Assembly (NCBI RefSeq): GCF_018977255.1
Contig: NW_024704743.1
Span: 23,686,001-23,750,000, forward strand
Reading direction: 5' to 3'
Length of the DNA: 64,000 nt
Origin: Callorhinchus milii
Lineage: Eukaryota
Notes under the pieces: model-generated
The model's input: only the letters and a program-made list of their open reading frames with translations
What the model was told of the DNA's origin: nothing
Database searches by the model: none
Shown here: in pieces, positions 31,770-40,560 of the stretch
Layout: every line of letters starts with the position of its first letter
How positions within the stretch are numbered: position 1 is the stretch's first letter
Position numbers and translations under genes: made by a program

Positions 31770-32450
31770 GCTTATTGCACCGGGGTCCTATCTTTGCACA
31801 GCATCTCAAGTTTTACATCACGGAGCTGCCCTTTCACCGCGGTACGCGCGGCGCTGCCTCAGGAATAGGAAAGTTAAGAGTCCTGATCGGAAAATCGCAG
31901 GATTCGGCTCTGCAGCTACTGAGGAGGCCCTTTTGTGATGAAATGTTGCATAAATAATGCCAACGAGGGTCGAAATTCAGTGGTTGCCATAGGGACCTTT
32001 GTGCCTGGGTGAACAACTCCATTCTGCAACGCTTGGAAGACTGCTCGCAGTCCAGCTCCCTGCACTGGGCTGGCTTTTGCTCACGAGTGGCAAAAGTTGC
32101 TCGCTCGATGGAAGGAATGTTAACTTGGGGGGACTCGGAGCGGTGCTGTTTCGCTGTGCGCGTAGCATGGTCCGCGTTCAGGTACCGATGTTCGACTGTT
32201 CTCCGCTCGCACTGCGTATTCGGACAGAGGCGGCTTTGACTTTCCTCGCCAGCTCCTGTGAATGGGGAGGATGGGGGGGGGGGTGGGGGAGGGCGCTTTG
32301 TCCTCCTGTTGTCTGGGTGAAGCCGGAGCTGACTGCACTTTTTATGGAGGGTGGAGGGAAGGGCGAAATAGATTCCCCCCCCCCCCCCCAAAAAAAAATC
32401 TTTACATACCTAGCGCTCCTGTTCACTTAAGTTAACTTTCCAGGCGCAGC
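31770..32450 (+). promoter_or_regulatory. CpG-rich island, candidate internal (intronic) CTNND2 promoter
   Basis: Marked local CpG enrichment in non-repeat DNA. CATAAATA (31949-31956) lies about 30 nt upstream of Inr-like TCAGT (31977-31981). G-runs flank the island. Confidence 0.65.
32167..32181 (+). CDS. CTNND2: Candidate coding part of an alternative first exon (MVRVQ), spliced in phase 0 to the 40448 exon
   Basis: agcATGG strong Kozak context (A-3, G+4); ATG GTC CGC GTT CAG|gtaccg donor; phase matches the 40448 acceptor; in-frame upstream TAG at 31990. Confidence 0.55.
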
Positions 32451-34044
32451 TTTGTATTGTATAAATGGAATGTTGTTGTTGTTGTTGTACTGACTCCGGG
32501 AGGAGATGGAGCCGAGCCTTTTTTTTTCTTAATTCCCTTTTCAGAAGGGTCACAGCATGCGTGTGGGAATGTAGGGCTGAAATGTACTTGTGGAGCTGTG
32601 CTGCGGTGAATCCGTTCTCCGTGCAGATCTTACGGTCAGAATCAGAAAGGAGAGAGGAGGTCGTGTCTGGAAATCAATATTGTCTTCCTGCCCCTCTGAT
32701 AAGTGGGTCTGGGGACCTGTCTGCTCAGATTTTGGCGCCAGGCCCACTGGAGCTTTCTGCCATGAGTTCGAGTGTCTCGAAGCCCCAATGGGATAGGGAG
32801 CAAATGTGCTGTTGCTGATAGTTTTGAGGGAAATAGAAAAAAACTAAGTGCACTTTTTAACAGCTGCATATTATTTGTAACCTTTCTGTGCTGAAGAGCT
32901 GTTACAGTGCTGAGCGTTAATGTGTGCTGTAAGCGTGCGTGTCTGGAGTCTTCCCCAGGATCATCTTTCTGTCGTCGTAATATCCCAAGTGATCAACAAG
33001 AGTTGCTGTCGTATCAAGAGCTGCCCTATTTGAAAAGCAGGATTTTAACATGCAAGTTAGGATCGTGGCAAAGAGAGTCACCACGGGAGTCATTTTACTT
33101 GAAGGGCTTTGATAATGCTGGAGCTTCAAAGAGTCATCTGCGGGAGACAATGAGGCTTTGAGATTTTATGGTGGCATAGCAAAGGGTCAAAACTGCGATC
33201 ATGGAAAGGGAGCTTAGGGCCAGGGAAGAGACGTGAGACCTGGAACAGGGAGGGAAAAGTCCCAAGAAACGAGGGGAACTTCAAAGCTGAATTTGCGGTT
33301 TCAACCTCCTTAGAAAACTGAACAAAGCCTCAAGGCTTTTGAGTGTGCAGTTCAGCTTCAGTTTGACCGTCGGTAAATATTTACCTGTTCTATTATTCCG
33401 CTTGTGCTTTCGTTCAGTTTTTTTTAAGAGCTTACTTTGTTTTATTTTACTTCATGTTTACTGTGCAAAGTTGTGTAACGTTCCTTTAAATTGTGAGATG
33501 TGGCAATGTGATGACTCATGTGTTTTAGAGGTTTAAAATGTAGCTCTATGTAGTTGGTGTATCAGAAGAAAGATGGAATGACTTGTGTGCCTTGTAAGGC
33601 TTGTAAAATCAACTCTTATCTCAGGGCTAGGTGTCAGGATAATTGAAAATGTGGTACCTGAATCCACTGTTTGTGGGACATTGCTGTTACCAAGGTACCA
33701 GCTCTGCATTACACAGTGTCATCATTCATGATGAAAAGAATATTTGGTGGTGCACAGGCGTAGTGCCAGAGCAAGTCTTTGATTTTAGAAATTAGGAGTC
33801 TTGTTAGTCATTGGGGATTCCCAACCCACTCACTCAGTTTCATTCATATCCATCTTAATTATAATAATCCTTACATTTGATATAGAGCTTTTCACTTCAG
33901 GAGGACGTCTCGTAATGCATCCCAGGAAAATTTTTAAAGTGCATCGACTGTATTTTTGTAGACTCCCTATAATGTTCATCATTTTAATTCTAATTATCTT
34001 TTAGCTAAACATAGTGAACGAATCAAAATAGACTGATATTTGAA

Positions 34045-34550
34045 AACATTTGTGGAACATTGCTGTGTCCAAATTGGTTGATGCACCCACCTATAAAATA
34101 CAGTCACTCCACTTTATAGTATATCCTTAAAGCCTTTGAGGTGTCCTCGTGATGTGAAAGGCACAGTATCAAATGTAAGGATTATTTTAATAACAATAAT
34201 CCTTGCATTTGATTTAGTGCCTGAGCACGTCGTTGAGAAGGTCTCAAGGTGCTTCACAGCATATATTGTAAAGTGGATTGACTGTGTATTTTGTGGGCGA
34301 TTTGTGACAGCCAATTGCGACAGCAGTATTCCACAAACAGTGGATTGAGGTACCACATTTTTTTTGGAGGGTATATTACCCCTCCGAAAGCAATCCGCCA
34401 ATCGACTAACAACTGAGTTCCTACTTACTGCTAGGTAAACAGAGACTTCTGGAGTAAGAAACTTGCCTAAGGTTTTGCCCCAGCCGGGAATTGAACCTGG
34501 GTCCTCTTGCTTGCGAAGCAAGTGCAATAATCACTATGCTTCGGGACTCC
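34045..34550. mobile_element. Tail-to-tail SINE pair: 3' half (+, 34045-34190) and full-length long-subfamily copy (-, 34190-34550)
   Basis: atcaaatgtaaggattatt-ttaataac-aataatccttgcatttgat junction; head ends at ...gggactcc (34550). Confidence 0.88.
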
Positions 34551-34786
34551 AATTATAATTAATAACAAACAAACAAACAAACAAACATTTGAGTTTGGAA
34601 ACAGAATGGTTTTAATTCTGTTTAATCAGTACTTTGAAGAGATGAATTTTGGACTTTTTTCAGTCAAGTTCTTCAGTGAAACAACTCCGCTGAACATTAC
34701 CATCCACGGTTAATGGAGACCACAGTTGATCCATAGACCTTTAGTAGATTCAAAGCACGTAAGAGGTGATGTGGTAGAGTGGGGGT

Positions 34787-35135
34787 TCTTTTTTGGTCAG
34801 TCGGGGCTCTGGCACATGTGGAAACCCATCACCAGCTTAAGAGTATCCAAACCAAATTGAGAATTCCATTCATCCCACCTACACATGGAAATTCCAGAGA
34901 TAGATGTTGGAATGGAATGAGCAATCCGGAAAGTATTAGGCGCAGGTTGGCAAGAGCCAAGGCTTGTGCGCTCGGGTACTGCTGGAGTCTAACCAGCTAA
35001 AGACGCATAGCTTGCCATTGATATTGCTGTCTGGCAAGCTTTCCCGCTGCTTGTCCAGCTAGGACCACCCTACACGTTAGGGCTTTGGCTTACGTGGGAT
35101 AACTAAGTGGGATAACTCCCTCTCCCCAGTGACTG
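34787..35135 (-). mobile_element. Unclassified A-tailed repeat family copy
   Basis: ttttttggtcag end; the + strand reads GVLLESN...SGKLSRCL (RT-like). Confidence 0.72.
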
Positions 35136-38631: not shown

Positions 38632-38830
38632 ATTACTCAATCCACGACTGTTTGTGGGACACTGCTGTGCGCAATTGGCTGCTGAGGTCTGGCCACAAAA
38701 TACAGGGTCAATTCAATTTACAGTATATCTGTATATATGAAGCACTTTGAGACATCTCAATGATGTGATGATCAAATGTAAAGATATATGATGCTACATC
38801 AAATGTAAAGATTATTTTTATTATTATTAT
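38632..38830 (+). mobile_element. SINE 3' half with a duplicated tail
   Basis: ccacgactgtttgtgggacactgctgtgcgcaattggctg body; atcaaatgtaaagat present twice. Confidence 0.85.
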
Positions 38831-39521
38831 GACATATTAAACCAGAAAGGAAGCTGGAGTGCTCCAAACTGAGCTGGATAACCTGGTGAGATTATGGACT
38901 TGAAGTCGCTTTGGGGATAGTGATCAGGTTTAATGGTGAGGGTGTGAAGTTTATAGGGGAGTTTTATTGAGATCTGGTTCCTTTTGATGTGTTGATGGGG
39001 GATTGTCATTGCCAGCACTGGTTGATGTATATTGGCTGGAGTTCATTGAAAGAATGAGAATCAGGATGGTCACCTATTTCCAGAAAACATTAGCATCTGA
39101 TTGACAGGAAATAAGGTAATCCATATGCTATTACATAAGTTCAAGGGTGAACAGAAAATATGCTTTATATAAAAAAGCTGTAATTTAAGTTGCTTTCATT
39201 CATTATTTTTTAAACTGTATTTTCCGGTTCCCCACCCTGGGGGCCTACATTGTGCATTACTGTCTGCCTAACAGCACACAGACCTCTTCTTACATCAATG
39301 AATTCAGCACAGACCTAGGATAGAAACCTGGGACTGTTGCGGTCAGCCACACATTGGATAAACACACAGCCATCAGAGGAACCTTGATAGACAAATAATC
39401 TTGAGAGCTTTCACACAGATCAGCACTTGCGCGTGTGCAGTTGTTTTCGAGATTGTTGCTGAGTATAGTATATCTTTTGGTGAAGGCAGTTGTTTTGGGT
39501 CCAGCATGTAGCTTTAGGCTT

Positions 39522-39910
39522 CCATAGAAAAACAGAAAAGTACAACACAGTAGGAGGCCATTCAACCCAGTTTTCTGTCTGTTTGTTCCTTCAAGAAGGA
39601 ATCCATCTTAATCCTTGTCTCTCCATGTGCTTGTCAATTTATTGCCTAAATGCCCCCAATTGACTTAGCTCCAGTAGGCACCACTTTCAAATCATTGCTT
39701 ACACTAACAAACCTCTGGGAAGAGAGTTCTTCTGAACCTCTGCTTTTATTCCCTTAGTCACAATCTTGAATTCATGCCCTCTTGACCTCAAATCCCCTAC
39801 CAACAGAAAGAGTTTTTTTTCGTGATTAATGCTCTCAAAGTTTTTCATTAACTTAAACACCTCTATCACGTCACCCCTCGACCTTCTCTGCTCCAGTCCT
39901 CCTTATCCCC
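39522..39910 (-). mobile_element. CR1 3' fragment
   Basis: catagaaa...aggaggccattcaaccc terminus; catgccctcttg (TRGH) and aaacacctctatcacgtcacccctc (RGDVIEVF) motifs. Confidence 0.8.
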
Positions 39911-40447
39911 ATAAACTTTTATTACTTTTGTGTTCTTTTCAATTTGGAAAACAATTGACTAACATAAAAGAGTTTGAACAAACTGAGCAACCAGAAGGTA
40001 AGTGACTCATTTCCTGATGGGTGAGAGAGCGATGTCTTGTTGCCAGTTAAATCAAAACAGCACAGGAGGTTGACAAGACAGTGCTGGAACAGTGTGCAAA
40101 CATTTGTTGGCTTATTCCATTTATAGACTTAGTGTTTGTGTCACTTCCACACTGAGCCTGCCCCAAAGATGAAGCCATGAGCTCTTTGGAAGCACTGGAG
40201 AAACACAATTATGTCAGACTATTCGCTAGTGAAAGGCAGAAGGAAAATAAACCTTTCTAAATACAACTGTGTCTATTGATTTTTTTCGCCCCTGCTTAAA
40301 CTGCCTTTTTATCAACACAACTTCTGTTTGCTGCCCTTGTGACACCACCTGACAGCAATGCAAAGGAAGAATTGCTGGAGACAGACACGTTTTCCCCCCT
40401 GATCGTCCCTTTCTCATATGTTCTTTCTCTTTCTTTCCATGGTGCAG

Positions 40448-40560
40448 GAGCTGCAGTTTGAAAGACTAACGCGAGAGCTGGAGGCAGAGCGCCAGATTGT
40501 TGCCAGCCAGTTGGAGAGATGCAAGCTTGGATCCGACACTGGCAGCATGAGCAGCATTAG
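40448..40560 (+). CDS. CTNND2: Internal coding exon of delta-catenin (catenin delta-2), N-terminal coiled-coil region; equivalent to exon 3 of mammalian CTNND2
   Basis: Pyrimidine tract (ttctttctctttctttcc) and cag| acceptor, then a 113-nt exon and an AG|gtacaa donor (phase 0 to 2). It translates [37 protein letters not shown], matching recalled CTNND2 ([36 protein letters not shown]) better than the paralog PKP4 (ELQFQRLTRELEVERQ...CRLGAESPS). Confidence 0.95.

Follow-up and report, generated by a model that had tools for sequence, protein, structure and literature searches.

A putative five-codon alternative first exon in intron 2 of Callorhinchus milii CTNND2 and its protein-level counterparts in sharks and teleosts

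Does the delta-catenin gene of Callorhinchus milii contain, within one of its introns, a second first exon that would give the protein a different N-terminus? The question is raised by a stretch of 64,000 nucleotides (nt) of contig C2 (C2:23686001-23750000; here called the window), which is part of the C. milii CTNND2 gene, and for which a preliminary description had proposed an internal promoter and a first exon of five codons, MVRVQ. The exons of the named C. milii CTNND2 protein map collinearly along C2:23.58-24.02 Mb, around the window, so that the assignment to CTNND2 stands. Exon 2 ends at C2:23577746 in phase 0, exon 3 is situated within the window and exon 4 follows about 105 kb beyond it. 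Canonical intron 2 is 148,701 nt long, with the five-codon exon 8,266 nt before its 3' end. We consider it very probable that CTNND2 has here a true alternative first exon, one that goes back to the common ancestor of jawed vertebrates.

The basis for this at the sequence level is a CpG island, an ATG, five open codons, a donor, a matching phase and a translation identical to the start of an annotated protein. Positions -3 and +4 of the ATG at 32167 are A and G, respectively, and the donor (CAG/GTACCG at 32181/32182) is in phase 0, matching the acceptor of exon 3 at 40448; all of the elements named in the preliminary description, from the TATA-like 8-mer and TCAGT to the exon at 40448, are present (Table 1). 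Strong-Kozak ATGs that are open into an AG/GTR donor occur only twice in the whole window. Intron 2 contains 123 sites consisting of an ATG, four further codons and GT, one of which fits the motif M[VI][HR][VIA][QKP], against an expectation of 0.034; the motif was defined after the hits had been seen, and all of its letters occur in the 49 motif-bearing proteins from species other than C. milii. The segment 32000-32200 has a single match in the C. milii genome. Among the paralogues of CTNND2, which are located on contigs C5, C6, C8, C17 and C19, the PKP4-type gene on C6 has no fitting site (0 of 3 ATG, four-codon, GTR sites in its 8 kb intron) and the C8 gene has no intron at the equivalent place. 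The exon therefore looks specific to CTNND2, judged on these two paralogues only.

Within the 264 kb scanned (the 90 kb upstream of exon 2 together with intron 2 and the window), MVRVQ is encoded in frame at only one other place, at 55603 in intron 3. Here (55592-55625) the arrangement pyrimidine tract-cag-ATG-gtaaga resembles a 3-nt micro-exon. This copy was taken as chance: it lies after exon 3, its fifth codon is not followed by GT, and 227 of 227 matched proteins are without an insert at the exon 3-4 junction.

The isoform is already known as a gene model in RefSeq and UniProt. XP_042187824.1, catenin delta-2 isoform X1 (UniRef100_A0A4W3GFU2; 1189 residues), is the truncated protein that had been predicted, and a search for MVRVQ joined to the start of exon 3, as had been proposed, finds it in both databases. 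Its residues 1-5 are the translation of 32167-32181 and its residues 6-42 that of 40448-40558. This entry, one of 12 C. milii CTNND2 proteins retrieved, is a database model and is silent on promoter, conservation and function. Isoforms X2 and X3 start 41 residues before the sequence ELQF, with which exon 3 begins, and isoform X4 starts at an in-frame ATG (40547) near the end of exon 3 and lacks the coiled coil.

Conservation was assessed in 383 proteins, comprising the best 120 of 1599, the best 120 of 1939 and the best 120 of 236 matches, with up to 15 members per cluster. ELQF is present in 348 of these, and in 50 of the 348 a start fitting the motif stands directly before it: MVHVK (24), MVHVP (10), MVHIQ (4), MVHVQ (4), MVRVK (3), MVHAQ (2), MIHAK (2) and MVRVQ (1). 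By source name, they represent seven cartilaginous-fish and 26 teleost species labels (33 together). The search for short proteins, which supplied the best 120 of 236, gave no further motif start. Zebrafish ctnnd2b isoform X16 (XP_073773924.1) and Heptranchias X1 and X2 (XP_067857191.1, XP_067857201.1) are examples in which, as in C. milii, five residues of this type precede exon 3 in the same phase. Compared as proteins, these fish isoforms differ from that of C. milii in having H rather than R at position 3 (46 of 50). The earlier suggestion that a V, a basic residue and a Q of the canonical upstream exon are kept in register holds for position 2, which mirrors the canonical V (V in 48, I in two); it does not hold for position 3, or for position 5, where K (29), Q (11) and P (10) all occur.

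The variants are distributed by lineage, with MVHIQ in three sharks, MIHAK in carpet sharks, MVHAQ in mormyrids, MVHVP in cyprinids and MVHVK in most euteleosts, and the pattern agrees with a tree calculated from the sequence beginning at exon 3 (a quick version without an outgroup, on 37 of the 383 proteins). This points to inheritance, as copied annotation would not predict lineage-specific variants. The motif is present in both of two Megalops genes, which are located on different contigs and fall on opposite sides of a 99% split. The ten proteins ending in Pro cannot represent read-through of the acceptor, because no Pro codon ends in AG, and the C. milii MVRVQ cannot either, because the intron end before exon 3 reads SMVQ in frame. 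Since proteins with this start are found in chimaera, sharks and teleosts, the exon was, by parsimony, probably present in the ancestor of jawed vertebrates, in agreement with the great age first suggested for it; no tetrapod equivalent was found in the proteins retrieved.

Several points weigh against this reading. All 50 motif-bearing proteins are database models or conceptual translations. The variability of position 5, Pro included, suggests that the peptide is under loose constraint, and the donor GTACCG falls short of the perfect consensus. None of 132 tetrapod and none of 26 ray or skate proteins with ELQF has a motif start, in an incomplete sample labelled by hand, and the only full-length coelacanth protein starts MVGMIM. 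The searches show cluster representatives, and X1 itself was found only as a cluster member, so that absence of the motif is suggestive only. Three models from Mobula birostris (P0221, P0258 and P0259) start MNDYKSFK before exon 3, which may reflect either an artefact or another short first exon.

A last point of this kind concerns two ATGs upstream of 32167 and out of frame with it, at 32108 and 32117, which open 28-31 codons on the spliced RNA. They are relevant only if transcription starts before them, and could then damp initiation at 32167. The transcript might even be real with a coiled-coil-free protein as its main product: translation would start at 32108 or 32117 and stop at 40469, re-initiation or leakage to 40547 would yield X4, and the MVRVQ form would be minor. 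The two overlapping ATGs and the good context of the ATG at 40547 are in keeping with this, as is the finding of proteins that start at this exon-3 Met (15 of the 383) in C. milii, sharks, rays, teleosts and tetrapods. However, the best context is that of 32167, the upstream ATGs meeting only half of it, and the ATG, the frame and M-V/I-H/R-V/I/A are kept from chimaera through sharks to teleosts, an indication that the peptide is under selection. X4 also has another possible source in a donor at 31073. We therefore regard such a division of products as unlikely. In six rays and skates the exon-3-Met form has three to four RefSeq accessions each, which suggests several non-coding first exons. 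A further out-of-frame ATG, at 40519 and opening 13 codons, overlaps the exon-3 Met.

The island over the five-codon exon is indeed the clearest of the window, as the preliminary description had it. Its core (31751-32250) contains 34 CpG, with a GC content of 0.54 and an observed/expected ratio (o/e) of 0.94, the window's highest, against 0.37 window-wide, and none of the 17 island-like patches in the 264 kb exceeds its peak of 33 CpG per 500 nt. No acceptor-like AG (at least 11 of the 15 preceding nucleotides pyrimidines, a simple heuristic) was found in 31600-32167. An island that has no such site ahead of its ATG is consistent with a first exon. If the exon were instead real but internal, following an upstream non-coding exon (that ending at the 31073 donor, or the canonical 5' exons), the island would not be its promoter; a second CpG patch, whose perfect donor lies 1.1 kb upstream, and the weakness of the core-promoter motifs are compatible with this. 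The strongest CpG peak of the 264 kb lies directly over the exon, however, and this, with the lack of an acceptor-like AG, makes an internal exon quite improbable. The 31073 donor is the most CpG-rich (13 in 300 nt) of seven AG/GTRAGT sites in intron 2, and its patch could be the source of X4.

The start of transcription had been assigned to a TATA/initiator (Inr) pair. The two elements are 28 nt apart, start to start, close to the expected spacing of about 30 nt, and both fail their full consensus (Table 1). Intron 2 contains 83 relaxed TATA sites, of which 39 have YYANW 24-32 nt downstream and two have TCAGT. Because both elements miss the consensus and relaxed pairs are frequent in the intron, the TATA/Inr core promoter is weak and not beyond chance. 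It is doubtful that the named pair marks the true start site; dispersed initiation across the island probably has, in our judgement, the larger share.

A gene-model artefact (an ATG-GT arising by chance, read-through of the intron or a start transferred from one annotation to another) has in its favour that many retrieved proteins begin with pyrimidine-tract read-through (MVLFQ, MFVFVFQ), that SMVQ stands in frame at the window's own intron end and that the motif-bearing proteins are models, but it is scarcely credible in view of the low chance expectation, the Pro-ending variants and the agreement of the variants with the tree. At 40439-40447 the intron ends in ATG-GTG-CAG (MVQ), in frame with exon 3, which could mislead gene finders. 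The starts of three other retrieved proteins (P0161, P0167 and P0235) are likely modelling artefacts: that of P0161 falls in a repeat, that of P0167 in the intron sequence immediately preceding exon 2, and that of P0235 at 31412. Exact matches of 5-11 residues did not locate canonical coding exon 1 in the 90 kb upstream of exon 2. Elsewhere, a lone match, 86% identical to CTNND2 residues 736-772, is located at C2:106762846-106762956, 83 Mb from the gene, and at 560-2030 of the window there are two related GC-rich, purine-skewed stretches, which are retroelement-fragment-like and not promoter-like.

Table 1. Features of the window at and around the putative alternative first exon of CTNND2 (positions within the window)
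Feature	Position	Strand	Basis or remark
Second CpG-rich patch, candidate non-coding first exon	31001-31079	+	Perfect donor GAG/GTAAGT at 31073/31074; no phase-0 ATG
CpG island over internal first exon, putative internal CTNND2 promoter	31701-32600		GC 0.53, o/e 0.71
TATA-like 8-mer, candidate only	31949-31956	+	Present; one mismatch to consensus, fails TATAWAWR
Inr-like TCAGT, candidate only	31977-31981	+	Present; fails YYANWYY, only YYANW fits
Upstream out-of-frame ATGs (32108, 32117)	32108-32119	+	Frame overlaps main ATG; stop codon at 40469, within exon 3
Alternative first exon, coding part MVRVQ	32167-32181	+	Strong Kozak, phase 0; residues 1-5 of XP_042187824.1
Intron GT...AG, 8,266 nt, 3' end of canonical intron 2	32182-40447	+	Sequence inspection
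CTNND2 exon 3, 113 nt, rest of coiled coil	40448-40560	+	Phase-0 frame, ...GSMSSI; named-protein mapping

With a genuine alternative first exon, transcription would begin within the CpG island, 8.3 kb upstream of exon 3, probably from dispersed sites and not from the TATA/Inr pair, and the five-codon exon would be spliced to exon 3. Translation from 32167 would then give a delta-catenin of 1189 residues. Its armadillo repeats, its C-terminal tail and most of its N-terminal coiled coil would be retained, whereas the Ser/Thr-rich leader, including the conserved SNGDGSExETTS stretch, would be missing along with the first helical turns.

In X1, five residues replace 41 of X2 and X3, a net loss of 36, so that the loss of 55-60 residues first proposed is a mammal-sized figure; shark and ray forms with coding exon 1 have 52 residues before exon 3. 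The coiled coil is not intact, as had been suggested. The segment TTSAILASVKEQ (12 residues, T30-Q41), which shows no variation among 22 canonical sequences ranging from sharks to rodents, is replaced by the five residues of X1; S21-S26 of the leader is kept in 21 of the 22. AlphaFold predicts a helix at 30-68 (39 residues) in the canonical form and at 2-32 (31 residues) in X1. These models are of low confidence overall, with a mean predicted local distance difference test score (pLDDT) of 40, which weakens the helix limits, the one feature for which they were used (canonical form, pLDDT 61-72 over 31-60; X1, 34 over 1-10 and 56 over 11-20). With V38 as heptad position 'a' (register set by eye), the series is V38, F45, L52, V59 and C66; V2 of X1 replaces V38, and I34 is lost. 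On these predictions, X1 would lose the leader and about one heptad, and would keep about four of five heptads. It is not a coiled-coil-free isoform, as exon 3 is fully kept and the helix 2-32 is predicted, nor does it belong to the full-length head-domain class, as the whole conserved helix TTSAILASVKEQ...LERC is not present. X1 would thus form a third N-terminal class between these two.

Choice between N-terminal isoforms is familiar in this family from isoforms 1 and 3 of p120-catenin (CTNND1) and ARVCF. In isoform 3 of these proteins, alternative splicing and start choice remove the whole head, whereas X1 keeps most of the coiled coil. In C. milii itself, the protein of the C8 paralogue has 19 residues ahead of the equivalent Glu, and its coiled coil is likewise near the N-terminus. 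Human CTNND2 has intragenic promoters (PMC7948131, available in part), and the short human isoforms are likewise N-terminally shortened, through downstream start codons and these promoters (PMC7948131 and PMC9289679, both available in part). The coiled coil, according to the same sources (in part), occurs only in the longest of four human isoforms and is missing from the short ones, whereas the fish form keeps most of it. According to the available part of PMC3013132, N-terminal alternative starts are apparently absent from delta-catenin, and reviews describe the protein as full-length or coiled-coil-free. The word 'isoform' appears nowhere in the main text of a zebrafish ctnnd2b paper (PMC10351287), a review (PMC11983503) and a preprint (PMC12772691), and the available parts of PMC7592556 and PMC10112520 contain nothing on a five-codon exon. 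No published description of the exon was found, searches for the motif strings included, in a literature from which most subscription journals and all supplements fell outside the search. Its spread from chimaera to zebrafish, and an intermediate N-terminus that keeps most of the coiled coil, seem to be unreported.

As to its role, we tentatively suggest that X1 may be a separately regulated delta-catenin that still binds cadherin, escapes leader-based control (kinase-driven turnover) and binds partners of the CCDC85/DIPA type differently. The destruction sites of p120 reportedly lie just before the coiled coil. Degradation of delta-catenin through Axin has been reported (PMC9289679, in part, citing Hong 2010), and a Wnt destruction sequence is described in p120 isoform 1 (PMC6331582, in part, citing Hong 2010). 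The proposed role is weakened by the reported GSK3 site of wild-type delta-catenin, T1078, which is not in the leader (PMC10235948, in part). The same source describes an autism variant in the leader, G34S, for which an additional GSK3 site is predicted. CCDC85 and DIPA bind the p120 head domain, for which the coiled coil alone is insufficient, and also bind delta-catenin (PMC4148249, in part).

A wider scenario is more speculative still, and we think it rather unlikely to hold in full. Ancestral jawed vertebrates would have had three delta-catenin N-termini, the middle one, without the leader but with most of the coiled coil, being supplied by the five-codon exon, which chimaeras, sharks and both teleost duplicates would have retained. 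The coding exon would have been lost twice, in rays and skates and in tetrapods, and the same intron-2 promoter would now drive a coiled-coil-free form there, the human short isoforms included. In fishes the middle form would be a delta-catenin independent of the phosphorylation and turnover that act through the leader.

Human CTNND2 disorders, for which zebrafish ctnnd2 serves as a model, result in some cases from deletions of exon 2 or breakpoints in intron 2 (PMC7948131, in part). A lesion in exons 1-2 of the fish gene would spare the isoform that starts at the five-codon exon, so that fish and human alleles may not be equivalent. The same isoform would be a natural construct in which the Ser/Thr leader is separated from the coiled coil.

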